A stretch of 64,000 nt of DNA from an uncultured Pseudomonadota bacterium (GTDB lineage Bacteria > Pseudomonadota > Gammaproteobacteria > Steroidobacterales > Steroidobacteraceae): assembly GCA_963726085.1 (NCBI GenBank), contig CAVSAR010000011.1, positions 74,298 through 138,297 of the forward strand, in the 5' to 3' direction. How positions within the stretch are numbered: position 1 is the stretch's first letter; every line of letters begins with the position of its first letter. This document shows, one piece after another, positions 25,401-41,621 of the stretch. Both the position numbers and the translations under genes were made by a program. The notes under the pieces were generated by a model. That model saw only the letters and a list, made by a program, of their open reading frames with translations. It searched no databases and had not been told where the DNA came from.

Positions 25401-27398
25401 CTACTTGGTACTGCCGGCAGACAGGCGCACCCCGATGTAGGCCGTCGTGCCGGGGGTCTGGTTGCCAAGAACTTCCTGGTAGTTGGCGTCGAACAGGTTT
25501 TCCACCCGCCCCAGCACTTCAAACCGGGGCGTGACTTTGTAGCTGGCAACCAGACGAACCAGGGTGTAAGCCGGCATATTGGTCTTCAACACCACGTAGT
25601 TGGGCAGGCCATACTGTCGGTAGTCGTTGTCGTAGTGTTCACCGTTGTACGTTACCCCCATGGTCAGTCGCACCTTCGCCCCCGGGTGCCAGGTGCCATC
25701 AAGGGCCGCCTGATTCTTGGGGCGACTGACTTCCACAGTCGGGGGGTTGCCTTCCATGGCGCGCAGGTAAGTGTACGAACCCACGACGTCGAAGTCGGCT
25801 GTCGGGGATAGGCGCGCGTACAACTCCATCCCTTCACGCGCGCTCTCGCCGGTGTCGTTGCAGCTCGACGGGTAGCAGGAAACTATCTCATCGTGCAGCG
25901 CCGAATTGAAGTACGTGAGATCAACCAGCGCACGACCATCGGCAAACTTCTGCTCGACACCCAGATCCCATCCCTTGGCGCTTTCGGGCTTGAGGTCCGG
26001 ATTGCCGACGAAGGTTCCAGGGTCGAATCCGAACTGTTCATAGAAGCTTGGGTTGGTCACGCCTTTGCCATAGCTGGCGTGCAGCCGGGTACCGGTGGCC
26101 TTGACTACCCAGGACGCTGCCAGCGAATACGTATCGGCATTGTCGAATTTGTCATTGTCATCGTAGCGATAGGACCCGGAGAGATACAGCTGCCCGGCAA
26201 TCTGCAGCTGGTCCTCCACGCCCACACCGACCAGCTCCCTGGTCTGGGCCTCCCGCTGCGTTGGCGAGAACGGATGCGTGTTCTGGAACGACTCCTTCTT
26301 GCTTTCGGCAAACCCGGTCAATGTGTTGCCGAGGCTCGCGGAGCCGGATTTAACCGACGACTGCAGCCCGTATTTCACGCGATAGGCCTGGTCGCCGAAC
26401 TCGTCCCCGGGAATGCCGTCCCTGCCTTCAGCGTGATTGTGGGTGTAATTCGCGTATGCCGTGGTCAACCACTTGTCATCCAGAAGGGACAAGGTGCCCG
26501 ATCCGGCCAGGTTGTATGATTGTGTCGAGGTCTGGCTGGCATCGTCGTAGGTCTCGCCCTGTCGCCCCGCAATGAATGAGAAGTCGAAGCCATCGGTCTG
26601 TGCCCTGGAATCCACGTAACGCGCAAAGCCATCGAATCTCAGATTGGGCGTGACCTTCACCCCTGAACTCACATAGCCGGTGACGTTCCTGTACCCCTCT
26701 TTGTCGCCGGTGACGCCGGGCGGGCCGTTGATGGCACCCAATGCGGAAATGTCAAAGCCATCGGTGTCGATAAACCCAGCCCCGCCGCCGAAGTAGTAGT
26801 CCCCATTGCCGAACCCGCCGCCGCCCAGCAGCGTGGTCGTGTTGAACGAACCGTATTCACCCGAGGCGTCGTAATACCCGCCGTTGGTGTCCTTCGGCGT
26901 CAGGATATTGATGACTCCCGCCAGTGCATTGGAGCCGTAGAGACCACTTTGCGGACCGCGCAGCACCTCGATGCGATCTATGTTCACCGCCAGCAGTGTT
27001 GAAAGATCTGTCTCGCCCTGACCAGCGTCCGACACATCCACACCATTGAACAGCACCAGCGTGTGATTGCCCTCGGCGCCACGCGTGCGGACCTGTGTCA
27101 GGCCGCCGTAGGAGCCGGTGCGGGTGACGGCCAGTCCCGGCACCTGCCGCAGTACATCAGATACGTAGTTATAGCCGCCGTCGTCGATCTGCTGGCCTGG
27201 CACCACCGTCAGGGAATTGCCAATCTTCTCGTACTCCGTGGGAATCGTCGTCGCCGTGACCACTATCTGGCCCAATGCGGATTGCGCTTCGACGATTGGC
27301 GCCTGCGCGAAGGCGGCACCTGCACAGCCCAGGATCAGGCACCCCAGGACCAGCCGGAATGCCGACAAAGCACCGGCGCTTGAACGGCGGACGGACAT
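25401..27398 (-). CDS. btuB: TonB-dependent receptor, probably the cobalamin receptor BtuB.
   Basis: Start MSVRRSSAGALSAFRLVLGCLILGCAGAAFAQA (cat 27396-27398) gives a signal peptide. A TonB box-like QIVVTATT is present, and the protein ends in a C-terminal Phe-containing barrel. It lies directly downstream of a cobalamin riboswitch. Confidence 0.8.
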   Translation of the reverse strand: MSVRRSSAGALSAFRLVLGCLILGCAGAAFAQAPIVEAQSALGQIVVTATTIPTEYEKIGNSLTVVPGQQIDDGGYNYVSDVLRQVPGLAVTRTGSYGGLTQVRTRGAEGNHTLVLFNGVDVSDAGQGETDLSTLLAVNIDRIEVLRGPQSGLYGSNALAGVINILTPKDTNGGYYDASGEYGSFNTTTLLGGGGFGNGDYYFGGGAGFIDTDGFDISALGAINGPPGVTGDKEGYRNVTGYVSSGVKVTPNLRFDGFARYVDSRAQTDGFDFSFIAGRQGETYDDASQTSTQSYNLAGSGTLSLLDDKWLTTAYANYTHNHAEGRDGIPGDEFGDQAYRVKYGLQSSVKSGSASLGNTLTGFAESKKESFQNTHPFSPTQREAQTRELVGVGVEDQLQIAGQLYLSGSYRYDDNDKFDNADTYSLAASWVVKATGTRLHASYGKGVTNPSFYEQFGFDPGTFVGNPDLKPESAKGWDLGVEQKFADGRALVDLTYFNSALHDEIVSCYPSSCNDTGESAREGMELYARLSPTADFDVVGSYTYLRAMEGNPPTVEVSRPKNQAALDGTWHPGAKVRLTMGVTYNGEHYDNDYRQYGLPNYVVLKTNMPAYTLVRLVASYKVTPRFEVLGRVENLFDANYQEVLGNQTPGTTAYIGVRLSAGSTK

Positions 27399-27727
27399 GG
27401 CATCGGACTTGACTATTTTGTTGCGCTCGACAGGTCCAGCTTCGCCATCGCGCCTTGTCATGGCCACCGCGCCCTGCTCGGCCGGTGACTTGAGCCGAAA
27501 TTCTGATGTCCTGTGACCACCCTGATTTGGCGCGGCGGCGCTCTCGATTTGCATTTTTTTTACTACCAGCTCCGAACAGGGGCTGACGTAGGCTGGATGC
27601 AAGGACAGCAGACGCGGAGGGCAAGCCCACCACGTGCCGGCCGCTCCTCCCACGAGAGCCCGACAAACTTCTCGCCCCAGGGACAGGAGCCCCTGAAGTG
27701 GCCGCGGCAGGTCTTCGGACTCTCGGG

Positions 27728-27910
27728 TGGGCCGGCTGACGCCGGTTTGCCTACTGGGCGCACTTCCCAGGAGCTTCACTAGCTCCCAGTGTTTTCTCGC
27801 TGTTCGTTCCCGATTACCGCTGCGGGACAGTTCCGGATTACTTCGCAAGAAGTCACCGGATTCCCTATTAAGCTGGCCATGCACGTTCTGCATGGCCCGG
27901 CACCGCTAAC
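27728..27910 (-). ncRNA. Cobalamin (AdoCbl) riboswitch.
   Basis: The minus-strand sequence GGTGCCGGGCCATGCAGAACGTGCATGGCCAGCTTAATAGGGAATCCGGTGA...AATCCGGAACTGTCCCGCAGCGGTAATCGGGAAC...CACTGGGAGC...CTCCTGGGAAGTG...AAACCGGCGTCAGCCGGCC matches the conserved core of the E. coli btuB leader (AAUAGGGAAUCCAGUG...GCGCAGCGGUAAGG...GAAGACCUGCCGGCC) and the B12 box. It is 5' of the TonB-dependent receptor gene. Confidence 0.8.
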
Positions 27911-28001
27911 GCCCTCAAGATATTGTGGTCGTTCGTTCGAGTCAACGGGAATCTGGCGACCAGCTTGGCGCGCGCCCGCGAGTAACCGTTCAGCGGTCCG
28001 G

Positions 28002-29213
28002 TCAGCTCCAGATGCGGACAAACAAAAAGAATGCGCCCACGCCTGCAAGACCGGCAGCTGCCACATCAGCCGCAAGCGTACGCAACGCTGCCAATTTTCT
28101 TCGCTGCAGCAGCGCTATCGCGACAAGGGCTGCGCCGAAAATCAGTGCCTGGGCCAACACAGCGCCGATGTCGAATCCAGCCTGCATTCGCACGGCCGCG
28201 GGAAGCGAGAAGTGCGCTCCCGGCAGCATTGAAGAGAGCAGGAAGCCGTCGAGGAACCCGAACGCGACTGCGAGCGCCACCCAGACGACATCCCGACGAT
28301 CGTACCAGTGCGATAGCACCAGGAAGCCGCCCGAGAATGCCGCCGCTCCCATCAGGAACAGCGCCGTCAGCACGGCTCCCTGTAACGTCGCTCCCAGCGC
28401 AACCAGCAGTAAAAGGCCGCTCCAAGACATTACCAGGGCCCTGTTGTGCTGGAGCGCCTGACGCCGTGCCATCGTCAGGCCGAGAATCGCCACCAGCAGG
28501 CCCAGGAACGCCTCGACGAAGTTGATGCGTGGCAGCACCAATCCACCGGAGGACAGGGCCAATGACGACAGGTAGCCCAATAGCAGCGCCGCGATCACTA
28601 TGCCGGCATCGCGCCTCCGGCGAACGAGCATTGCCGCACCCACGAGGAAGCCAATTTGCACCGCACTGCGCAGCACATGCATGCCGCCGAGACCTACATA
28701 TTTCGACAACCGGGCCGGCGGTGGCAGTCCAAGTGCTGCTACCGGGATTTGCCGGTCCGAGGAGGTAAATATCTGGTCGACCGTTTGCCCCTGCCGCTGG
28801 ATGTGCGCGAAATTGACATGGCCGGGAACGCGATCGAACAACACCTCATCGCGCAATACCATGGCGCCGGCTACCGGGCACTGAAAAAAGATCTCGAATC
28901 CGTATTGGTCCGATCCCACTTCCAGCGGATCAACCTTGCCCAGATCGTATCCCTGATCAATGGCGGGGCAATCCATGGCACCAGAATTCACCGCCGCGTG
29001 CTGAAGCACATAGTCGCCCAGTTCTCGTACGGACAAGGTCGGCAGGTCGGTGCCGACCAGGCGTTCGGCCTCGCTGGCTGGAAGCAGGAACTGCAAGGTC
29101 ACCAGGCGCCCGGACAGCGTCCAGGTCGAATAGCTGGTGCTAGTGCCGGTGGCGTGGACACTGGGCGACAGCAACATGAACAGGCACAGTCCTGGCAACG
29201 CCAGCGGTTTCAT
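28002..29213 (-). CDS. HupE/UreJ family protein (putative Ni/Co transporter with an N-terminal periplasmic domain).
   Basis: 403 aa. Signal peptide MKPLALPGLCLFMLLSPSVHA, then an ~170 aa soluble domain, then about 6 TM helices rich in Gly/Ala/Leu. This resembles the HupE_UreJ_2 architecture. It is a recognition call. Confidence 0.45.
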   Translation of the reverse strand: MKPLALPGLCLFMLLSPSVHATGTSTSYSTWTLSGRLVTLQFLLPASEAERLVGTDLPTLSVRELGDYVLQHAAVNSGAMDCPAIDQGYDLGKVDPLEVGSDQYGFEIFFQCPVAGAMVLRDEVLFDRVPGHVNFAHIQRQGQTVDQIFTSSDRQIPVAALGLPPPARLSKYVGLGGMHVLRSAVQIGFLVGAAMLVRRRRDAGIVIAALLLGYLSSLALSSGGLVLPRINFVEAFLGLLVAILGLTMARRQALQHNRALVMSWSGLLLLVALGATLQGAVLTALFLMGAAAFSGGFLVLSHWYDRRDVVWVALAVAFGFLDGFLLSSMLPGAHFSLPAAVRMQAGFDIGAVLAQALIFGAALVAIALLQRRKLAALRTLAADVAAAGLAGVGAFFLFVRIWS

Positions 29214-30130
29214 TTGAGAAATCCTGGGGCAATCAGGATCCGCGCCTGACTGCGCAATTGAGCCAAATTCTCCTTCTTGGCCCGCTCGGACTGCTGCGCG
29301 CGATAGGATTCGAATACCTGGTTGCGCACGGCCGTAAAGTCTGCAACCACAGCCACGTTGTGCCGCTCCACGACGATGATGTGCACGCCATCGCTGTCGG
29401 ACACCGGGTCCGAAACGTCGCCGTCGCCGAGCGCCGCGGCGACTGCGTAGAGTTTTTCACCAAGCTGCCGTTTCGCTTCGGCGCTCGACTGCTCACCGAC
29501 GCCCACTCGCCCGGAATCCACCAGCCCGAAATGCTGCATGACGTGATCAAGCGAGGCCCCGGCGCGCAACTGATACACCGCTTCCGCGGCATCGGCCTGC
29601 GCCTGTGCATTGCTCTGATCGGCGTTCTCGTAGCCCCCGACGTGAAGCACCAAATCATGCAGCGTGATGGGGCCGCTCACCGTGTAGTTGGCACGGTTGG
29701 CCTCATAGAAGGCGCGCAATTCGTCCTCCGTAGGAGGCTGCGCCGCCAGTGCGGCATCGGTCTGCGCCGAGACGCCCATGGCCATCGCATCTCGAACCTC
29801 AGTGGTGGTCTCTGGAAGGTCGAGCACCAGCGCGCGCTGCACCAGCACCTCTTCATCGATCATCTGATACAGCACCTGGGTGCGCTCTTCCGGGGTGGCC
29901 TCCTCGAACGGCTTGTCCACTACCGTCTTCACCTCGGAGATGAAATCGCTCAACAGAATGCCTTTCTGGTTAACCATGGCGATGTATCCCGGGGGCACGC
30001 CGGTTAGCACGCGCGGGGTCTGACGAAACATGCCAAATCCGGCCGCACCCACGCCCAGGGCGATCGCCAGCAGCGGCAGCACCAGGCTGCGGCGCGGGCG
30101 ATACAGCAGGTCGGCCAGGAATCGGGCCAT
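29210..30130 (-). CDS. SurA N-terminal domain-like periplasmic chaperone/peptidylprolyl isomerase-family protein.
   Basis: Start MARFLADLLYRPRRSLVLPLLAIALGVGAAGFG (cat 30128-30130) is membrane-anchored. The MVNQKGILLSDFISEV segment resembles the PpiD/SurA N-domain. No clear parvulin motif is seen. Confidence 0.45.
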   Translation of the reverse strand: MARFLADLLYRPRRSLVLPLLAIALGVGAAGFGMFRQTPRVLTGVPPGYIAMVNQKGILLSDFISEVKTVVDKPFEEATPEERTQVLYQMIDEEVLVQRALVLDLPETTTEVRDAMAMGVSAQTDAALAAQPPTEDELRAFYEANRANYTVSGPITLHDLVLHVGGYENADQSNAQAQADAAEAVYQLRAGASLDHVMQHFGLVDSGRVGVGEQSSAEAKRQLGEKLYAVAAALGDGDVSDPVSDSDGVHIIVVERHNVAVVADFTAVRNQVFESYRAQQSERAKKENLAQLRSQARILIAPGFLK

Positions 30131-30162
30131 GGCGGCGCGCAAGCGCGAGGCATTCAATTGAG

Positions 30163-30987
30163 TCACTGGAGTGTTCCGGCGGGCAAATCGGTTCCTGGCC
30201 CCGGGCGCGAGTGCGGTGGGTGCGAGGCCGCGTACACATACACTGCCAACGCGCGTATCTGCCCCAGACTCAGCGTCCGGCGCCATCCGGGCATGATGTG
30301 CCGCTGCCCGAAATAAATGGTGTTGTACAACGACTGCGATTCATCGGCGGACTTCCAGATCAAGCGGGTCAAGTCCGGCACGCCGTAAGCCGCGTTGCCA
30401 CGGGCATCAGGTCCGTGGCAGTCGCCACAATTCGCGGCTCCTTCAAACAGAACACGGCCATCATTGGCTGCCTCCGGCCGGTAATGCCAGTCATTTAATT
30501 TCAGGAGATATTGCACCACGTCCCGGACCTGGGCGTCATTGAGCATGCCCCGCAGGCCATATGCCGGCATTTCGTCCAGACCCCGTGACTTGCCAGCGCC
30601 GTTGCGGATTCCATAGAGCAGCGTGCGCTCGATCTCATACACACTGCCATCCCCGAACAGCCAACGGTCGTCGGTAAGATCCGGCGTGCCAATCCTGGGG
30701 TCGCCATGCAGATCCGACGCATGGCATTGAACACAATGCTTCAAGTACAGCGGCCGCGCCCATTGGTTGGCAAAGCGCACCAACTGGGGATCAGCCAACA
30801 TCGCATCGGGAAGGGCAGTCAGCAGCCGGCGCTCCATCCGTTCGCGCCGCATATGGAGCAACTGCGCAGCGGCGCCGACCAGAACCAGCACGGCCAGCAA
30901 CAGCATCCAGCGCCAATTGCGTGTGGCGACCGATCCGGCGCTGCGCAGCGGCTTCCTGATCTTATTTGCGTTGCTCGAGAGGCTCAT
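30163..30987 (-). CDS. Dihaem c-type cytochrome, membrane-anchored.
   Basis: 274 aa with an N-terminal TM helix and two CXXCH motifs (CVQCH, CGDCH). Confidence 0.75.
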   Translation of the reverse strand: MSLSSNANKIRKPLRSAGSVATRNWRWMLLLAVLVLVGAAAQLLHMRRERMERRLLTALPDAMLADPQLVRFANQWARPLYLKHCVQCHASDLHGDPRIGTPDLTDDRWLFGDGSVYEIERTLLYGIRNGAGKSRGLDEMPAYGLRGMLNDAQVRDVVQYLLKLNDWHYRPEAANDGRVLFEGAANCGDCHGPDARGNAAYGVPDLTRLIWKSADESQSLYNTIYFGQRHIMPGWRRTLSLGQIRALAVYVYAASHPPHSRPGPGTDLPAGTLQ

Positions 30988-30998
30988 TGCGCTAGTAT

Positions 30999-32969
30999 TT
31001 GCAGCCTACTACGGTTGGGTCACGGGTATTCATGATCGGCACTGGGACAGTAGCGAAGCCTGGAGAAGCGGTCTACCCGCGCTCCCATCGCCTTGTCCGG
31101 CGACTGGCGCTGTTTTACGCGATAGCCGCGATTGCCACTGGCACCCTGCTGCTGGCCGGGCTGTTGCCCGATGGCACCGCGACGCAGCTTCGATCACTGG
31201 CCGGTGAGGCCATCGCGGGTGGACTTGCCGGCCTTGTTCTTTCGGCACTCCTGCTGTCCCTTACTGGCCTGCTGGCCACGCTCGCGCTGACCACCGCCCG
31301 CTTTCGACACGCCACTGCGGACCAAGCCGCAGCTGCAGCCCGATGGCGCGATGCGTTGCGGCACCCAGGAGTGGCCGCACGCGTTGGGCAAGCCGTCATT
31401 GTCACGGCTGGCGCCCTGCTGGTCTTTCTGGTCACGCGCCTGTTCTGGCCCACTGCCGTTAATCCCGCCAATGCCACTATTGCCAACATTGCCGGCGCGT
31501 TCGTGCTGGCGCTGGCATTTGCATCCCTCGTGTCCGAGCGCGTGCTCAACTCTTTCCCCGCCCCGCAGCTGCCGGAAGCCCCAAGCTTGCGGCGCCTGCT
31601 GTTGCTGACCACTGTACTGCTGGCGGCCGCTGCCGCGATCGAATTCGCGCGGGGCGCCATGGTCGCCTGGTTGCACTGGCCGCAAATGGTGATTGCCTGC
31701 GTGCCGGGGCTTATCGCGCTGGAGCTGGCGTTGCGCGCATTGGCTCGGCTGTTCCTGCCTGCGCCGCCAGCCGCCACCGCCACTGCGGTCACCGACAGCC
31801 TGCTCGCGGGCCTGCTTACCGGTGGGCCGCGCTCGCCTGGCACGCTGTTGCGCACCCATCTGGGACTGGATTTCGCGCGCAGCTGGGCGTTGTCGTTCCT
31901 GAGCGCCGCCATCTTGCCCGCGCTGTTCGGCACGGCGCTGCTGTGCTGGGCATTGACCGGGCTGAAGCTCATCGATCTGGGGCAGCGCGGCATCTACGAG
32001 CGCTTCGGCGCTCCGGTTGCCGTGCTGGGTCCGGGACTGCATTTGCTGATGCCCTGGCCACTGGGCCGATTGCGCCCGGTGGAGTTCGGGACCATCCACT
32101 CGGTGGCCATTGGCGTCGACGACGCAACGCCCCAGTCCGAAGAGCACATAGCCGCCGAGGCCACGCCGCCCGTCAGTCTGAACCGGCTCTGGGAAAGCGC
32201 ACATCCCGGGCAGGCCGAATATCTGGTTCCCAGCCCGGGCACCGGGCAGCAGGGCTTTCAGAGCGTGAGCACCGAGATCAGGGTCCTGTACCGCGTCGGG
32301 CTGACTGATGCAGCGGCCCTGCAGTCGGTGTACACGGTTGCGGATCCACAGGCCCTGATCCGGTATGCGGGAAGCCGCCTGGTGCTGCGCTACTTCAACT
32401 CGCGCACGCTGGATGCCGTGCTTGGTGCGCAGCGCGATAACGTTGCAACAGCCCTGCAGGAGGCACTGACTGCCGACCTCAACTCGCACCATGCCGGGAT
32501 CGAGATCGTTTCGGTGCTGATAGAGGAGATCCATCCTCCCGCGGGGGCTGCTGCCGCCTACCACGCGGTCCAGGCCGCTGAGATCAATGCCAGCGCCAGT
32601 ATTTCCGATGAGCGCGGACGCGCCACGCGCGTTGCTGGCGTCGCGCAGCAGGAAGCACATCAGCTGCTGGTCGGGGCGACCGCGCGTGCCGCCGAGGACA
32701 TCGACGCCGCCAATGCCGAGGCCTATCGATTCAACGCGGAACGTCGTGCCTATGCCGACGGCGGCCAGGCATTTCTGCTCGAACGCTCCTTTTCGAGACT
32801 GCAGGCTGCCCTTGCCGACAGGTCCCTATTGCTCATCGATCATCGCCTGAGTTCCGCCGAGGTTCCGGTTCTCGACCTGCGCCAGCGCGAGAAGGCGGCC
32901 GCAGGGGCCAGGATCGATGGTACCGATGCCGTCCTGGAGCTGGGTAGCCCGCCTAACAGCACCCGCTGA
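30999..32969 (+). CDS. SPFH/band-7 domain protein with a large N-terminal polytopic membrane domain.
   Basis: 656 aa from a TTG start (alternative ATG at 31032). The first ~300 aa hold several TM helices. The SPFH core follows (GIYERFGAPVAVLGPGLHLLMPWPLGRLRPVEF) with an Ala/Glu-rich coiled coil. Confidence 0.65.
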   Translation: MQPTTVGSRVFMIGTGTVAKPGEAVYPRSHRLVRRLALFYAIAAIATGTLLLAGLLPDGTATQLRSLAGEAIAGGLAGLVLSALLLSLTGLLATLALTTARFRHATADQAAAAARWRDALRHPGVAARVGQAVIVTAGALLVFLVTRLFWPTAVNPANATIANIAGAFVLALAFASLVSERVLNSFPAPQLPEAPSLRRLLLLTTVLLAAAAAIEFARGAMVAWLHWPQMVIACVPGLIALELALRALARLFLPAPPAATATAVTDSLLAGLLTGGPRSPGTLLRTHLGLDFARSWALSFLSAAILPALFGTALLCWALTGLKLIDLGQRGIYERFGAPVAVLGPGLHLLMPWPLGRLRPVEFGTIHSVAIGVDDATPQSEEHIAAEATPPVSLNRLWESAHPGQAEYLVPSPGTGQQGFQSVSTEIRVLYRVGLTDAAALQSVYTVADPQALIRYAGSRLVLRYFNSRTLDAVLGAQRDNVATALQEALTADLNSHHAGIEIVSVLIEEIHPPAGAAAAYHAVQAAEINASASISDERGRATRVAGVAQQEAHQLLVGATARAAEDIDAANAEAYRFNAERRAYADGGQAFLLERSFSRLQAALADRSLLLIDHRLSSAEVPVLDLRQREKAAAGARIDGTDAVLELGSPPNSTR

Positions 32970-32996
32970 TCACCATAGTCAGGTAAAAGAAAATGT

Positions 32997-33984
32997 TTGC
33001 CACATCACGACAACCCCGATCACGACCATGATCATGACCATGACCACGACTTCAGGTTCGGTCTGCGCATCGGGGTTGCCGCACTGATCCTGCTGGCCGC
33101 GATTGCGGCGGCCTGCATCGTCATGGTCCCCGCCGGCGAAGCCGGTGTGATCACCCGCTTCGGCAACCCGGTGCGCGTGGTGACCGAGCCGGGACTGGCG
33201 TGGAAGCTGCCCGCGCCGTTCGAGAGCACGATTCCGTCGATCTGCGCCTGCGCACGACCTCCACTGGACTGCAGGACGTCGGCACGCGCGATGGGCTGCG
33301 CGTCCTGGTGCAGGCCTACGTTGCCTGGCAGGTGCCGGACGATCCGCAACGGGTGCGCCAGTTCCTGCGCTCGGTGCGCAATCAACCCGATGAGGCGGCC
33401 GTGCAGCTGCGCAGCTTCGTGAGCGCTGCGCTGCACATCATCTCGAGCAATTTCGATCTCACGGATCTCGTAAATATCGACTCGAACAAGGTGCGGCTCG
33501 ACGCCTTTGAGCAGGCTCTCAGCGAGCAGGTCGCCCCGCGCATGCTGCAGATCTATGGCATCGATATCCGCCAGGTCGGCGTCGAGCGCATGACGCTGCC
33601 GGATGAAACGCTGGCGGCGACGGTTGCCAGAATGCGCGCGGAGCGCGAGACCGTGGCGGCGGAACGCACCGCGGAGGGCCTGCGGCAGGCAGCGGCGATC
33701 CGCGCCGATGCCGATCGTGATGCGCGCGAAGTCGTCGCGCAGGCGCGCGAACAGGCCGCGCATACGGAAGCCGATGCGCAGCAGGCGGCGGCCCGCATCT
33801 ATGCCAAGGCCTACCAGGGCGATCCAGGCCTCTACAGCACCCTGCGCTCGCTGGATGCGATCAGCCAGATCATCGGGCGCAACACGAGCCTCGTGCTGCG
33901 CACGGATGCGGCACCGTTTCGGGTACTGGTAGACGGACCCTCCGGCGCCGCACCGCCCCCGGCAAGGCTGGCACGCAGAAGTGA
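32997..33984 (+). pseudogene. SPFH/band-7 (HflC-like) protein. The reading frame is broken by 1-2 single-base indels (probable sequencing errors).
   Basis: N-terminus MPHHDNPDHDHDHDHDHDFRFGLRIGVAALILLAAIAAA...GEAGVITRFGNPVRVVTEPGLAWKLPAPFESTIP continues in another frame as VDLRLRTTSTGLQDVG... (frame switch near 33235). A one-base change in the C5 run near 33955 would give ...PPPGKAGTQK-stop, forming a GTGA overlap with the next gene's GTG start. Confidence 0.6.
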
Positions 33985-35071
33985 CCAACGAGCTCGACAT
34001 CGCCGGCGAGCACGCGCACCCGCATCCGGAGGGACCGCCGCCGCCGCCGCCGCCAGGACCGATCGCCCAGTCGGTGGCGATCGGATTCCACGTCGTGTAC
34101 ATCGTCGGCCTGCTGTTGCTGTTCTTCTGGCTGACCAGCAATGTGCGGGAGATTGCCTCCGACAGCCAGGCCGTGGTGCTGCGCTTCGGCCGCATCGTCC
34201 GGTCGCAGGAAGCCGGGCTGCTGCTGGCCTGGCCGCGCCCGATCGAGCAGGTGCAACTGCTGCCCGGCCCAGAGCGACAATTGAGCCAACCCGTCGCACC
34301 GCTGCCGCCAGCAAGCGAGGCGTCACAGCAGCTGGTCGGGCCGTTCAAGGGCAATCAGGCCATACCGCAGAACGTCTCGTCCTATCTGACCGGTGACGGC
34401 AACGTCGTGCTCCTTGATGCCACGCTGATCTATCGCATCAGCGATCCCGTCGGCTATGCCCTGGCCCAGAGCCACGTTGCCGCGGCGCTTGACCGGCTGT
34501 TCCGCGCCACGACAGTACGGGTCGTGGCCGGCCGCACTCTGAATGACTTCCTCGTCGTCCCCAGCAATGCAGAGGCTGGTGCAGAGGGCCAGGCGCAACT
34601 GGCGCTGCGCGGCGAAGTACGCAGCTCCCTGCTGCAGTCCATGAACGAGCGCCTGCGCGCGCTGGCCGCGCGCGGCGCTTCGCGGGCGTCGAGATCGAGC
34701 GCATCGACATGACCGCATGGCTGCCGCCGCAGGCGAAATCGGCCTTCGACGCGGTGCTGATTGCCAGCCAGGCCGCGGATCGCGGCGTGGCGGTGGCGCG
34801 AACCGATGCCGAGCGGCGGCGCCAGGAATCGGCCCGCCAGCGCGATCAACTGCTCAGCGCGGCCCAGGCCACGGCGCAGGAACTGGTAAGTGGCGCCAAC
34901 GTCAATACCGCGGGGATACTCGCGCTGGAGCACGAGGAGACGCCGCAGACCCGCAGCAGCCTGCTGCTGCGCGAATATCGTGCGCGCACGGCCGACATCA
35001 TGAACCGCGTCGGCTCTGCGACCCTGGTCGACTCGCACGGCGCAACGCGCCTGTTGCTCCCGGGGAAATGA
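33981..35071 (+). pseudogene. SPFH/band-7 (HflK-like) protein with one frameshift (probable sequencing error).
   Basis: GTG start MTNELDIAGEHAHPHPEGPPPPPPPGP, then a TM helix and SPFH core (AVVLRFGRIVRSQEAGLLLAWPRPIEQV). The frame switches near 34690 within gcgcgcgcggcgc and continues FAGVEIERIDMTAWLPPQAKSAFD... to the stop at 35071. Confidence 0.6.
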
Positions 35072-35085
35072 AACTATGAACACGA

Positions 35086-37028
35086 TGTCAGGCTCGGTAC
35101 ATGAGAATTCCCTGCGGATTCCGGCGGCCGCCCCCTGGCCCTGCTGGATCGCGCCGAGCGCATGGTGCTGGGCCTGCGCCTGACGCTGGCGCTGGCGGCG
35201 CTGTGCCTGCTGCTGGTCGCGGGCGCAATGCGGCTGTTCCTGCCTGCGCAGCAGGGCATCGCCGAACTGGTGGCCGGTGTCGCCGCAGCACTGGTGGCCG
35301 TACCGGTGTTTGTGGAAGCCTGGGCCAGCCTCGGCATCCGAGCCTGCACGGCATCACCGACCGCCTGGTGGCGCTGGCACTGATCGCCGCCTGGGCGACC
35401 GGGGATCTGATGACCGCGGCGTTCCTGCCCATCATCATGACCATCGGGCACGTGCTGGAAGAGCGCAGCATGCTGGGCTCGCACGAGGCCGTGCGCGCAC
35501 TGACCAGACTGACCGAGGTTGATTGCAATCGCCTGCTGCCGGATGGCAGCTGGGAACTGGTGCCCAGCGCGCAGCTGCGCGTGGGCGACGTGATCGAGCT
35601 GCGCGCAGGTGATCGGGTGCCGGCCGACGGGATCGTCCGCCGCGGGCGCTCCAGTCTCGACATGGCTTCGCTGACGGGGGAGTCGGTGCCCGTGGAGGTT
35701 CACGAGGGCGACCAGGCACTGGCCGGCGCGATGAATGTCGACGGCCTGCTGCAAGTCGAGCTGACGCGCGTGGGCGAGGAAAGCACGGTCGGCCGAATCA
35801 TCACCCTGATGCGCGAGGCCGAGAACGCCAAGCCGCCGGTCACGCGGCTGCTGGATCGCTACGCCGGCCAGTACATGGCGCTGGTGCTGCTGGTCGCGGC
35901 TGGCACCTGGCTGATCACCGGCAATGTGCCGGCGATGCTGGCGGTGCTGGTGGCTTCCTGTCCCTGCGCGCTGGTGCTGGCCGCGCCTGCCACCGCCGTG
36001 GCGGCCATCGCCGTGGCCGCGCGCCACGGCATCCTGATCAAGGGCTCGGCATTCCTCGAGCATCTGGCCGATGTTTCCTCGGTGATTTTCGACAAGACCG
36101 GCACGATGACGACCGGTGATCTGCATCTGGCGCAGACCCAGCCGGTGGCCGGCGTCGATGCCGAGGAACTGCGGCAACTGGCCGCCAGCCTGGGCGCCGC
36201 CAGCAACCATCCGCTGAGTCGGGCAGCCGCCGCCGCGGTGCCCCAGGACAGGCGCGTGCCGCTGGAGGATACCCGCGAGCTGGGCGGATTCGGCGTCACG
36301 GGCAACTACCGGGGCGAGCGGTTGCACTGGGGCGCGCGGATCTGTTCGAGCGCCTTGGGATTGCAGCGCCGCTGCCACCGGCGCACAACGGCCCGATTGC
36401 AGGCGTCAGCCGCGGCGACACGTTCCTGGGCTGGTTGCTGTTCCTCGATCAGCTGCGCAGCAGCGCCACCCCTGCGGTACAGGACCTGAGGGGACTGGGC
36501 ATCGAGCATATGGTGCTGCTGACCGGCGATCGCACTGCCGTCGCGCGCCAGGTCGCCGGCGAAGTGGGCATCGACGACGTCTTCGCCGAGATGCTTCCCG
36601 AGCAGAAGATGGACCAGGTGATGCAGGAGATCAAGCGCGGCCATCGCCCCATGGTGGTCGGCGACGGCATCAACGATTCACTGGCCCTGCGCGCCGGCGC
36701 GGTCGGCGTCGCCATGGGCAGCCAGGGCGCGGACGTCGCGTTCGCCTCTGCCGATCTGGCGCTGATGACCAACGACCTGCGTCGCCTGGGCACCTGCATT
36801 CGCCTCAGCCGGCGTTGCCGCCGAACGATTTATGTCAACGTGGCGATCGGGCTGGGATTCACCTTTGGACTGACCGTGCTGGCGGGTGCGGGTGTGCTGG
36901 GAATCGAGGCGCCCATCATCGCGGCGCTGCTGCACAACGTCAGCACCTTCCTCGGCATCGGCAATGCCGGACGGCTGCTGCTGTTCGACGAGACACAGGC
37001 CAGCGCCGTGTCGGCCGCCACCGCCTGA
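35086..37028 (+). pseudogene. Heavy-metal translocating P1B-type ATPase, reading frame broken by at least two single-base indels.
   Basis: Pieces in three frames: N-terminal TM region (LVAGVAAALVAVPVFVEAWASL... / HPSLHGITDRLVALALIAAW), a core with CPC (VASCPCALVLAAP), DKTGT and HP, and a C-terminal piece (36435..37028) with GDGINDSLAL. The frame switches near 35335 and near 36340, the latter a single G in cggatc. The exact start is uncertain. Confidence 0.6.
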
Positions 37029-37043: not shown

Positions 37044-37811
37044 CTAGCGAGCCTGCATGGCCTGGCGCGCGGGCGTAGCTCGATGCTGCGTCCACTCCCC
37101 CAGGCAACCAAACAGCACGCCGATTGATCCCCACAGGACTGTCTGGATGCCCAGCGATGCCATCCGGAAATCCCAAAGCGTGACCGCCGGAAAGTTCTTC
37201 GGCACCTCGTTGATCGCCGGCAGCAACAGGAAAGCCGCGCCAATCACGACGAGGTACAGCACCATCGCCGCCAGGGTCGAATTCCAGGGACCTTTCCTGC
37301 CGATCAGGCGGCGCTGCATCATTGCCGCGCCCACGGTCGCCGCAACCGAGATCGCCACCATGAGGAAATACATCGCGGTGCGGTACTTGATGGTATCGGG
37401 TTCACCCACCGAGGGCGGATTGGCCGGGTACTTGAGGGCCGGAACCACATAGACAGACATCAGTCCCAGCAACGCCAGCAATGCCGACGTGGGGCCAGGT
37501 CCCAGCAGACCCAGGCGTCCATTGGCTATGGCGAACAGCACGGCGAACAAGCATCCCAGGCCAGCGCCCACCACCACCAGGCCCGTCAGCAATCCGATGC
37601 CACTTTGCACCGTGCGGCTGAAGATTTCCGGTTCCTCTTCTTCGGCCTTTTGGCCAGCTGCGACTGCCGCAGCCGCCTTGGCTTCGTTTTGCGCAGATTC
37701 GAAGCCGATGGCACTCTCGACCGGGGCTTCACCGAATGCCCTTGCCCAGCCAAATGCCAGCAAGCCGGCCGCTATGCCGATGATCAGCCCGTAAAGTATG
37801 AGTCGTCCCAC
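37044..37811 (-). CDS. cbtA: CbtA family cobalt transporter subunit.
   Basis: 255 aa. The multi-helix membrane protein MGRLILYGLIIGIAAGLLAFGWARAFGEAP resembles CbtA. It lies immediately downstream of a CbtB-like small ORF. Confidence 0.7.
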   Translation of the reverse strand: MGRLILYGLIIGIAAGLLAFGWARAFGEAPVESAIGFESAQNEAKAAAAVAAGQKAEEEEPEIFSRTVQSGIGLLTGLVVVGAGLGCLFAVLFAIANGRLGLLGPGPTSALLALLGLMSVYVVPALKYPANPPSVGEPDTIKYRTAMYFLMVAISVAATVGAAMMQRRLIGRKGPWNSTLAAMVLYLVVIGAAFLLLPAINEVPKNFPAVTLWDFRMASLGIQTVLWGSIGVLFGCLGEWTQHRATPARQAMQAR

Positions 37812-37851: not shown

Positions 37852-38073
37852 TCAGTGGCAAGGAAACCCGAGCAGGTGCCGTGCATCGTGGACGAACTCG
37901 TGTATGCCCATGCCGCTGACCATCGAAGTGGCACCCTGCTCCGCGCCCACGAAGTAATACGCCATTACCATGACCAAGCCACCCAGGACGGCCCAAGGCA
38001 CGATCTTCCTGAGCGGAATGGCGGGTGTAGCGCTAGCGGATACACCCACTTGTTGATCGGCAGCAGCGGCCAT
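37852..38073 (-). CDS. cbtB: CbtB cobalt transporter subunit.
   Basis: 73 aa from MAAADQQVGVSA (cat 38071-38073, RBS GGAGA). It has a single TM helix and the C-terminal His-rich tail HEFVHDARHLLGFPCH that is characteristic of CbtB. Confidence 0.7.
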   Translation of the reverse strand: MAAAADQQVGVSASATPAIPLRKIVPWAVLGGLVMVMAYYFVGAEQGATSMVSGMGIHEFVHDARHLLGFPCH

Positions 38074-38190
38074 CGTTCGTCTCCAGGGACCCCTATGTTC
38101 CCAGTCTATCCAACAGCAGGGAAAAATCCCAACTCCGGGAGATAATGGGGGTTTCTTGCGACCTGAAGCTGCCAAGTCCTACAGACGCAT

Positions 38191-38778
38191 ATGGCCACTC
38201 GAATCACCCTGATCTGCCAGGCGACGACCAAAGCGCTGCGTTCGGCCACCTTCGGTGGCGACGATTCGCTGGACGACATAGGCAGGGTGCAGGCCCAGCG
38301 CCTTGCCGGCAGCATCGGCCAGGTCAATCACTGCTGGACCAGTCCGGCGCTGAGCGCCCGCGAAACCGCCACGGCACTGGGCCTGGTCGCAACACCCGAC
38401 GCGCGGTTGCGTGACTGCGACTTCGGCAGATGGACCGGCCTGCGGTTCCAGCAGCTGCTGTTGCGAGAGCCCAGGAAACTCGTGCGCTGGATGAAGGATC
38501 CAGGCTCCGCGCCCCATGGCGGGGAATCGATCCCGCAGGTCATTGATCGGGTGGCAGGCTGGATTGACGAGCGCGGCCGCGATCCCGGGCACACCGTGGC
38601 CATTACCCATGCGTCGGTGATCCGCGCGGCGATCGTCCACGTGATCCTGGCGCAGACCCCGACGTTCTGGCGGATCGACGTGCTACCGTTGTCGCGGACG
38701 CAGCTGCGCACCAATGGCCGGCGTTGGGTATTGCGCTCGCTGGACACCGGCTGGGGCACCGAGGCAGAAAGAGAATAA
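38191..38778 (+). CDS. Histidine phosphatase superfamily (CobC/phosphoglycerate mutase-like) homologue with a degenerate catalytic motif.
   Basis: 195 aa. The N-terminus [10 protein letters not shown] aligns to the canonical RxxLxRHGET motif, but the Arg, His and Gly are replaced by Cys, Gln and Ala. The C-terminal [10 protein letters not shown] matches the conserved (S/T)HGGxIRA region. Confidence 0.5.
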
Positions 38779-38782
38779 TCCG

Positions 38783-40624
<1,842 letters not shown>

Positions 40625-40714: not shown

Positions 40715-41621
40715 ATGGTGCGCCACGGGCTCGTCCTTGCTCATCGAATGCTTGGCGTCGCACTGGCGATCTTGCTGGTACCCGCGGCCCTTACCGGGAG
40801 CGTGCTGGTCTGGAAGGACTCGCTCGATGCGCGACTGAACCCCCAGCTGTACTTCGCCGGCGACCACCGCGCAACCCTGAGTGAACGCCAGTTAGGTACC
40901 CTGCTGCGGGACCGGTTTCCCGCGGTGCGGATCGGCTGGATCGAAATGCCCGCCGCGCCTGGACGCAGCGCAAGGATCAGCGTGGGCAATTGGCCACGCA
41001 CCGACATGCAGCGGCAAATCAACGAGGTGTTTGTCGACCCGGCCACCGCGGATATCCTGGGGGTCAGCAGCACGGTCGCACCGGGGCTCAACCGCCAGGA
41101 GATCATTCCGTGGCTGTACCGTTTCCACTACACCCTGATGCTGCGTCGCACCGGCATGCTGATCATGGGTGCGGTAGCGATGGCCTGGTTGCTGGACTGC
41201 GTTGGGCATGTTGCTGACGTTTCCCAGGTCCCTGTTTCGCTGGAACAAGTGGCAGCTGGCCTGGCGCGTCCGAACCTCGCGCCTGGATTTTGACTTGCAC
41301 CGCGCATCCGGGCTCTGGTTCTGGCCGGTCCTGGTGATCCTGGCTGCATCGAGCGTTTACCTGAACCTTACCCACGAGGTGTTCGTTCCGGTCACGCAAT
41401 GGCTGGCGCGGGCACTGTTGCCCGAGCACCTGAGATTGCCGGTGACAGACGCGGTGCTGGACTGGCAATTCCCGCTGCACAACGGCGAGGCCTTCGGCCT
41501 CTCAGGACGAATCATCGTCTGTACCTGCGGTCTGGTCATTACCGTCCTCGCGGTCAGCGGGATCGTGACCACGATGCGCAAGTTATCAACCGGTCGCCGC
41601 CATCCGCACATCCCTGGCTAA
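40715..41621 (+). pseudogene. PepSY-associated TM helix domain protein, interrupted by one frameshift (probable sequencing error).
   Basis: Start MVRHGLVLAHRMLGVALAILLVPAALTGSVLVW. The frame switches near 41205 (LLDCVG / MLLTFPRSLFRWNKWQLAWRV) and continues with DLHRASGLWFWPVLVILAAS. Confidence 0.55.

Follow-up and report, generated by a model that had tools for sequence, protein, structure and literature searches.

CbtAB is among the most widespread predicted cobalt importers. It supplies cobalt both to the synthesis of vitamin B12 and to enzymes that use the metal, among them nitrile hydratase, and its mechanism and regulation have barely been studied. CbtA and CbtB were predicted as a cobalt transporter from B12-riboswitch regulons, and CRISPR interference (CRISPRi) knock-down of cbtB/cbtA in Methylococcus resulted in better growth at toxic cobalt, in keeping with a role in cobalt import (PMC13108547). 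In a comparative study of Leptospira it was noted in passing that cbtBA had been gained together with an extra gene for a branch-1 histidine phosphatase (PMC4758666). The present work deals with a gene for a histidine-phosphatase-fold protein (HP) located next to cbtB-cbtA in a 64,000-nucleotide stretch, here called the window, of contig CAVSAR010000011.1 from an uncultured bacterium of the Steroidobacteraceae (assembly GCA_963726085.1, contig positions 74,298 to 138,297, forward strand). Coordinates are those of the window unless another contig is named. A preliminary description of this DNA had drawn attention to the altered catalytic triad of the HP product.

Enzyme-like proteins that have lost catalytic motifs are known from other families. 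The pseudo-phosphatases STYX and MK-STYX have been described for Cys-based phosphatase families, and the FtsHi proteins of plants are defined by loss of the HEXXH motif (PMC8197885, PMC6460958). In a full-text literature search, a protein with the phosphatase fold that is linked to CbtAB, or a histidine-phosphatase pseudoenzyme from bacteria, was mentioned at most in passing and nowhere described. What the locus revealed is a CbtAB-linked, catalytically degenerate clade, together with a presumably protease-dead FtsH neighbour of HP.

Fold and catalytic pocket of the HP product

HP occupies positions 38191-38778 on the forward strand and encodes 195 amino acids. The product matches the Pfam profile His_Phos_1 (PF00300) with E=1.7e-26 and 93.6 bits, the cut-off being 21.7 bits. 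An AlphaFold2 (AF2) model built on a 60-sequence family alignment reached a mean predicted local distance difference test score (pLDDT) of 95.5 and a predicted template modelling score (pTM) of 0.91, and it has the alpha/beta fold of phosphoglycerate-mutase-like proteins. Foldseek placed histidine phosphatases at the top of its matches to this model, over about 194 columns and with a probability of 1.00. The template modelling (TM) score to PspA (4ij5/4ij6) was 0.86, and GpgP, the riboflavin-pathway HFP and CobC were matched as well. By fold and profile HP belongs to branch 1 of the histidine phosphatase superfamily. Homologues are labelled in databases as "histidine phosphatase family protein" or "broad specificity phosphatase PhoE". 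Fusion domains that might hint at a partner were not found in ten longer family members, which show His_Phos_1 only.

Curated models of individual enzymes were not satisfied by the sequence. For CobC, TIGR03162 gave 77.7 bits versus a cut-off of 162.9 and PRK15004 gave 21.7 versus 250, and the NCBIfam equivalogs for PspA, dPGM, MSMEG_4193 and RNase H/acid phosphatase all scored far below their cut-offs.

Residue correspondence was fixed by an end-to-end family-profile alignment to the solved phosphatase 9mmh_A, in which "sritlichatt" of the family is paired with "kkIyLIRHAqs". Accordingly, residue 9 of HP corresponds to the Arg of the RHG motif, residue 10 to the nucleophile, i.e. the phospho-acceptor His, and residue 11 to the Gly, which is Ala in 9mmh itself. 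The second Arg of the pocket maps to the position aligned with R55 of the family, the general-acid Glu to D75 and the second His to H140. In the window copy, codons 9-11 (38215-38223, +) read TGC CAG GCG and specify C-Q-A, with C9 encoded at 38215-38217 and Q10 at 38218-38220. Codon 55 (38353-38355, +) is AGC for Ser, a residue shared with the closest relative described below, in a position where 104 of 120 orthologues have the canonical Arg. Codon 75 (38413-38415, +) is GAC for Asp. Only codon 140 (38608-38610, +), CAT, supplies a canonical residue, the second superfamily histidine within the segment ITHASVIRA. Thus one of the five canonical pocket residues is kept and four are non-canonical, which amounts to a loss of essential ancestral residues of the kind seen in pseudoenzymes. 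Besides H140, the G-x-W-x-G and P-H-G-G-E segments are retained.

An upstream start that could supply an RHG motif is ruled out. The stop-to-stop frame opens at 38167, only eight codons 5' of the ATG, and strand beta-1 of the confident model is already formed by residues 3-9. The reading frame itself, its whole-length homology to histidine phosphatases, the C-Q-A sequence at the place of R-H-G and the retained downstream His had all been given correctly in the preliminary description. It understated the degeneracy of the pocket, in which the second Arg is missing as well and Glu is replaced by Asp.

Histories of the triad substitutions among close orthologues

A homologue search over 5.8 billion proteins found 572 sequences, of which the best 120 (70-83% identity) were analysed. 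Cys is present at position 9 in 117 of them, His at position 10 in 119 and Ala at position 11 in 110. When the window's own sequence is set aside, all 119 of these top homologues read L[IV]-C-H-A-T-T or a close variant of it (C/A/S-H-A/G/S). The three triad substitutions have different histories, because the orthologues share C and A but keep His. Arg to Cys and Gly to Ala are ancestral traits of a large family, and His to Gln, a single-nucleotide change from CAC to CAG at nt 38220, is a singleton, strain-specific substitution on an already non-canonical motif. The triad change had been presented as a peculiarity of this gene, which holds for the His-to-Gln step and not for the other two.

Among about 143 close orthologues, none but the window protein has Gln at position 10. 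Clustering at 90% identity joins the window protein to a single further sequence, P0271, which stems from an unrelated Joint Genome Institute (JGI) metagenome. This sibling differs at 8 of 195 residues (96% identity) and reads LICHATT, with CAC as codon 10 on its contig L087. Over 8.6 kb this contig and the window share 93.8% identity (6.2% divergence). The exact 195-residue window protein, Q10 included, is also encoded by an independently assembled Logan contig from run ERR12037367. Between HP and its sibling 17 codons differ, 9 of them synonymously and 8 non-synonymously. From these small counts the ratio of non-synonymous to synonymous substitution rates (dN/dS) is 0.31, versus 0.05-0.25 in neighbouring genes. 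At positions that are conserved to at least 95%, the window HP shows two departures (H10Q and S158T), the family median being one and the maximum five.

Decay of the pocket in the wider clade

With HMMER, 1.84 billion cluster representatives were searched exhaustively and 127 of them were found at E<=1e-30. Residue statistics of the clade were compiled from 135 full-length representatives at 50% identity. The window HP shares 36-59% identity with 150 wider representatives, which together with the 70-83% to the 119 homologues places it within the clade. It also carries a non-Arg residue, C9, at the position of the RHG Arg, as is usual there. The first Arg is retained in 12% of the 135 representatives, the replacements being Cys (46%), Ala (19%) and Ser (16%). 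The nucleophile His is kept in 64% and is Gln in 10%, the second Arg is kept in 47%, and the general-acid Glu in 21%, with Asp in 70%. The second His is the best preserved of the five (80%). The full canonical pentad occurs in 9 representatives (7%). Joint loss of both histidines is favoured, with an odds ratio of 4.2 that carries no phylogenetic correction.

Members linked to CbtAB illustrate how far this has gone. The Klebsiella protein reads C-Q-G and has Pro for the second His, that of Streptomyces reads C-A-A with Glu for the second His, and those of Paracoccus aminovorans, Bradyrhizobium and Cupriavidus read C-S-L, C-S-A and C-V-P. A member from Acidimicrobiia has C-Q-A, as in the window, and Ser in place of the second His. 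Indeed, the change from His to Gln at position 10 recurs in independent lineages. Among 80 species-level genome loci, 65 encode C-H-[AG], and about ten have N, Q, V, S, A or D in place of the His. A scaffold is nevertheless conserved throughout the clade and includes G79/W81/G83, P108-H109-G-G-E112, R120, R145, D163, P166 and W179.

The clade-wide pattern is, on the residues present, that of a pseudoenzyme family rather than that of a new catalytic solution. Of the two readings offered in the preliminary description, "pseudo-enzyme or regulator" appears to fit the evidence best, with support at the level of the family. The other, a new catalytic variant, found no support: in the wider clade none of the alternative pocket residues is invariant, and both histidines are missing from many of its members.

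Two relatives with the canonical pentad deserve mention. One, P0164, has an R-H-A/R/E/H pocket and is encoded on contig L095 (845-2734), where it adjoins a gene for a binding protein of the Peripla_BP_2 type (BtuF/siderophore-type) and a further gene, and not cbtBA. This single case hints that the CbtAB-linked clade was derived from an active phosphatase associated with B12 or iron transport. The second, P0204, lies on a 1.8-kb contig.

Linkage to cbtB-cbtA

On the other strand, and divergent from HP across an intergenic region of 117 nt, lies cbtB (37852-38073, -; 73 amino acids), identified by the Pfam CbtB profile and by tblastn with the CbtB protein of the orthologous locus L001. A 73-residue CbtB is likewise predicted from L087 and from the Logan contig. 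Next to cbtB follows cbtA (37044-37811, -; 255 amino acids). It was assigned by alignment to Pfam CbtA (E=4.9e-73), and its product is the membrane subunit of CbtAB, the putative importer of cobalt. These neighbours on one side of HP, and an FtsH-type gene that begins 4 nt past its stop codon on the other, agree with the preliminary description.

The generality of this arrangement was assessed in a scan of genome contigs with one genome per species, which gave 80 loci and is biased to members matching R[DE]CD[FY]GRW and [LF]RTNGRRWV. Apart from Steroidobacteraceae, they represent other Gammaproteobacteria, Acidobacteriota and a large number of Alphaproteobacteria, with cultured members of Rhizobium, Paracoccus, Labrys, Inquilinus and Methylosinus among them. 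As in the window, cbtB-cbtA directly adjoins HP in 77 of these loci, and the remaining 3 are cut by contig ends. HP is either divergent from cbtB or the last gene of a cbtB-cbtA-HP operon. The same trio is found on annotated plasmids of Paracoccus, Bradyrhizobium, Cupriavidus, Streptomyces, Granulicella (there next to cobN) and Klebsiella, and adjacency to cbtBA was also seen in the loci of P0280, P0272 and P0160. Taken together the clade is distributed over Gammaproteobacteria, Alphaproteobacteria, Betaproteobacteria, Acidobacteriota and Actinomycetota, and by report Leptospira. Its defining genomic partner is the CbtB-CbtA cobalt uptake system. FtsH was considered for this role and rejected, since its adjacency to HP is confined to the close clade (identity of at least about 59-64%) and that of cbtBA holds throughout.

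Several of these loci have a cobalt or B12 context. In Klebsiella michiganensis the order is amidase-nthA-nthB-accessory-cbtB-cbtA-HP, so that the trio ends a nitrile hydratase cluster. The Acidimicrobiia gene for the C-Q-A member adjoins cbtBA together with cobN, chelatase (CobST-like) and cobB genes. A B12 riboswitch precedes the whole cbtB-cbtA-HP unit in two Paracoccus species and precedes cbtB in Inquilinus and Methylocapsa. A riboswitch acting on cbtB of the window was rejected; the sole riboswitch of the window is found at 27689-27922 (-), in front of a gene for a TonB-dependent receptor. The former description of the product as CobC-like is therefore valid for the superfamily level only, as the curated CobC models are failed and the family travels with cbtB-cbtA, even in a nitrile hydratase operon.

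The divergent intergenic region of the window (38074-38190) and those of L012, L013, L016, L018, L019, L024-L026 and L028 contain common AT-rich elements that were recognized by eye. One of them is AAAA(A/C)(A/T)CCTTTAT(A/G)T. Another, near cbtB, is partly palindromic and resembles CCTATGATGCCATAGG, its window version being GGAAAAATCCCAAC. These elements may represent a shared promoter or operator. In both Labrys loci a small RNA of the mmgR/suhB family (RF00519, about 60 bits) was detected (L042, 8524-8597, -; L055, 8523-8596, -), approximately 1.4 kb upstream of HP and beyond cbtBA.

The FtsH paralogue and the surrounding genes

The gene 3' of HP (38783-40624, +) starts 4 nt after the HP stop codon and encodes an FtsH paralogue of 613 amino acids with the Pfam domains FtsH_ext, AAA and Peptidase_M41. 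Both of its Walker motifs, A (GSPGTGKT) and B (IIFMDEID), are preserved, and the zinc motif HEXXH is replaced by R-E-G-G-R. This replacement, or REAGR in a few cases, was present in all 25 orthologous loci examined (L001, L003-L007, L009-L026, L028, L029 and L087 are listed, with the window). The two genes are separated by 4 nt in the window and overlap by 8 nt in L098. In the window's sublineage HP is taken to be co-transcribed with the FtsH paralogue, and it is probably coupled to it in translation as well.

Upstream of HP and beyond cbtA, tblastn with L001 proteins identified a first SPFH/Band_7 gene (31056-32954, +), which is intact, a gene for a 370-residue protein with a His/Asp-rich N-terminus (33036-33949, +), a second SPFH gene (34050-35068, +) and a P-type ATPase gene of about 650 codons (35332-36998, +). 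This block (31056-37028, +) occurs with the cbtBA, HP and FtsH genes in many orthologous loci and is conserved in gene order in L001 (552-6731), L005 (10448-16417), L021, L026 and L028, and the order of the window is that of L001. In three orthologue loci the FtsH paralogue lies directly 3' of HP, and cbtB-cbtA, two to three SPFH genes and a gene for a P-type ATPase of about 650 residues are nearby. S-C-P-C and H-N-V-S-T are found as transmembrane motifs of the ATPase, and an N-terminal metal-binding domain was not detected in it by Pfam. In L001 the 370-residue protein begins with an N-terminus that includes a long (DH)n repeat; the window protein has a short DHDHD there. This composition suggests metal binding. 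The FtsH paralogue, the SPFH proteins and the P-type ATPase around HP suggest a larger membrane module for metal homeostasis.

Further upstream, the cobalamin riboswitch mentioned above (RF00174, 85.6 bits) precedes a gene for a TonB-dependent receptor with Plug and barrel domains (25401-27893, -), presumably a BtuB-type corrinoid receptor. The longest possible start of this ORF (open reading frame) overlaps the riboswitch, and the true start is probably located further downstream. Between the riboswitch-controlled receptor and the SPFH cluster there are genes for a HupE/UreJ_2 membrane protein (28002-29213, -), a PPIase (peptidyl-prolyl isomerase)/SurA-like protein (29210-30286, -) and a di-haem cytochrome c (30163-30987, -). 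Ni/Co transporters are among the members of the HupE/UreJ_2 family. In L001 and L005, too, the cluster has a cytochrome c at its flank.

Four genes of this region are frame-broken in the window compared to intact orthologues. The gene for the 370-residue protein changes frame near 33230 and the second SPFH gene near 34665-34685. The ATPase gene has a 1-nt deletion at 36322, and a PepSY_TM gene a 2-nt deletion at 41203. In the sibling contig L087 neither the ATPase gene nor the PepSY_TM gene is broken. The lesions, all four of them short deletions, lie mostly outside long homopolymers. Both sides of the breaks are well conserved, with dN/dS < 1 on either side of the ATPase break, so that the lesions are either very recent or artefactual. 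Elsewhere in the window seven ORFs of 684-1080 residues (about 19 kb) are uninterrupted, and an AcrB-type gene matches its Pfam model end to end. At a uniform rate of 4 lesions per 8.6 kb, we estimate the chance of about 19 kb without a lesion at approximately 1e-4. The lesions are therefore clustered, which points to either locus-specific decay or a locally poor stretch of the assembly.

Possible function and alternative explanations

HP is a soluble, well-folded protein of an unnamed, CbtAB-linked clade with the histidine-phosphatase fold. Members of this clade nearly always have Cys, Ala or Ser for the first Arg, often carry replacements of the second Arg and of the Glu, and can do without the nucleophile His. 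Given the clade-wide loss of Arg, Arg, Glu and His, the family most likely does not work as a phospho-histidine phosphatase. HP would then be a non-catalytic cytoplasmic accessory of CbtAB-mediated cobalt uptake, acting as regulator, gate or hand-over factor, and in the window's sublineage it would be coupled with an FtsH paralogue that lacks HEXXH, beside SPFH proteins and a P-type ATPase. Judged from conserved residues and gene order, this explanation is a reasonably probable one. A more specific version, which we consider quite unlikely, would have the former anion pocket, with both arginines gone and lined by Cys, His, Asp and His, turned into a metal- or ligand-sensing site. HP would accordingly be a third, cytoplasmic and hitherto unrecognised component of CbtAB ("CbtC") that senses or receives Co2+ and gates its uptake, and in Steroidobacteraceae-like and acidobacterial lineages it might form a cobalt-homeostasis membrane machine with a protease-dead FtsH unfoldase, SPFH scaffolds and the P-type ATPase.

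Several observations weigh against a non-catalytic accessory. In the close, FtsH-linked clade the residues C9, H10, T12, T13, R17, C48, C76, H109 and H140 are conserved to 96-100%. Such a near-invariant pocket has some role there, possibly a residual or altered catalysis, and Q10 of the window is probably consequential for this sub-function of the pocket. Seen from the side of CbtA, an HP partner was present in 18 of 27 metagenome CbtA loci with enough flank; HP thus depends on cbtBA and cbtBA does not depend on HP, which, being absent from about one-third of CbtA loci, is not an obligate subunit. One family member (Shinella) is located away from cbtAB. Finally, Q10 lies within the stretch of four frameshifted genes, and what looks like a functional variant may be an allele that is in decay or was wrongly assembled. 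The pocket conservation, to which R57 (also within 96-100%) and R55 (87%) can be added, would also be expected if the family were still enzymatic with a re-wired active site, in which R17 or R57 replaces the Arg or Cys9 takes part, maybe as a divergent phosphatase of the B12 pathway of which H10Q is a null mutant. The nearest canonical relatives are indeed active small-molecule phosphatases (PspA, GpgP, CobC and the riboflavin HFP, itself R-H-A), several loci are B12-regulated or lie beside cob genes, and the canonical P0164 sits beside a BtuF-type binding protein. We nevertheless regard a working enzyme as unlikely, because so few representatives keep the first Arg or the full pentad, and many CbtAB-linked members lack the nucleophile His, with some, such as those of Klebsiella (C-Q-G/P), Streptomyces (C-A-A/E) and Acidimicrobiia (C-Q-A/S), lacking both histidines. 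Moreover, the Klebsiella copy resides in a nitrile-hydratase operon with no B12 link, and the scores stay far below all curated enzyme-family cut-offs.

Two further explanations concern the window copy rather than the family. The C and A of the orthologues confirm that the Arg and Gly substitutions are real; since the orthologues normally carry His, both an error in the local sequence and a loss confined to this strain have to be weighed for codon 10. The glutamine codon might be a base-call or consensus error (C to G at nt 38220) in a gene that in reality reads C-H-A. This would account for a residue seen in no other close orthologue and for CAC in the 96%-identical sibling, it is compatible with the 1- or 2-nt deletions in conserved frames of four genes within 8.6 kb, and three of the four clearly derived amino-acid changes with respect to the sibling fall on the window side and at conserved positions. 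An error is decidedly improbable, as the identical protein with Q10 is encoded on the independent Logan contig, the defects of the neighbours are all deletions and none a substitution, and the same exchange recurs in independent lineages. Furthermore, natural divergence as seen in the 17 differing codons of HP and in the 6.2% over 8.6 kb easily covers one more substitution. Alternatively, the whole module of SPFH, P-type ATPase, CbtAB, HP, FtsH-like and PepSY genes could be undergoing inactivation in this strain, H10Q being one of the lesions, R55S an older one of the lineage, and the copy a relic. The clustered frameshifts in a region whose ATPase and PepSY genes are intact in the sibling, the unbroken long ORFs elsewhere in the window and the dN/dS of HP, the highest of the compared genes, are in line with such a process. 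However, no lesion breaks HP, cbtA, cbtB, the first of the SPFH genes or the FtsH-like gene, any inactivation would have to be very recent given dN/dS < 1 on both sides of the ATPase frameshift, the HP copy is no outlier at conserved positions (with the same small substitution counts), and the clustering fits a local low-coverage assembly equally well. We consider a relic copy unlikely too.

If HP is a non-catalytic accessory of CbtAB, as we prefer to assume, this could be tested in cultured hosts, namely those with Klebsiella nitrile hydratase (NHase) plasmids, Paracoccus, Rhizobium, Labrys and Streptomyces. The findings also call for caution against the automatic annotation of such genes as "PhoE / CobC / phosphoglycerate mutase family".

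Comparison with known systems

Among the enzymes of known function, CobC is the one whose NCBIfam model scores best for HP; the two are of similar size, and some family members occur in B12-regulated or cob-gene surroundings. HP differs from CobC in that it lacks RHG and is linked to a cobalt importer instead of nucleotide-loop genes, and that the family also occurs in a nitrile-hydratase operon. In the annotated part of the window no nucleotide-loop genes (cobU/cobS/cobT) were found beside HP, the neighbours being cbtBA and the FtsH-like, SPFH and P-type ATPase genes. With the branch-1 histidine phosphatases PspA (4ij5), GpgP (4pz9) and riboflavin HFP (9mmh), HP shares the fold over its whole length (TM 0.82-0.87) and the second His. 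Identity to them is only 18-28%, however, and HP has Cys, Gln (His in the orthologues), Ser and Asp at catalytic positions.

Pseudo-phosphatases of the STYX/MK-STYX type provide a parallel to HP in the conservation of an enzyme fold without key catalytic residues, in a fixed genomic partnership and perhaps under purifying selection. In contrast to them, HP has the histidine-phosphatase fold, is bacterial and is tied to a metal transporter and not to phospho-signalling, and its inactivity is deduced from its residues. The clade would thus be a bacterial example of a pseudoenzyme with the histidine-phosphatase fold. Similarly, the FtsH paralogue resembles the chloroplast FtsHi proteins of plants as an AAA+ module without the HEXXH zinc site, but it is bacterial and has the conserved motif R-E-G-G-R. 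The literature search found no described bacterial counterpart of this REGGR paralogue, which may itself be a bacterial counterpart of the FtsHi pseudo-proteases.

A further comparison is that with CbtA/CbtB itself, of which HP is a near-constant third gene, either divergent from cbtB or downstream of cbtA. The published descriptions that we found deal with two membrane components, whereas a soluble partner is mentioned in passing for Leptospira only (PMC4758666). That a soluble protein with the shape of a phosphatase and a degenerate catalytic site accompanies CbtAB in at least four phyla suggests that a component of the system has so far been missing.

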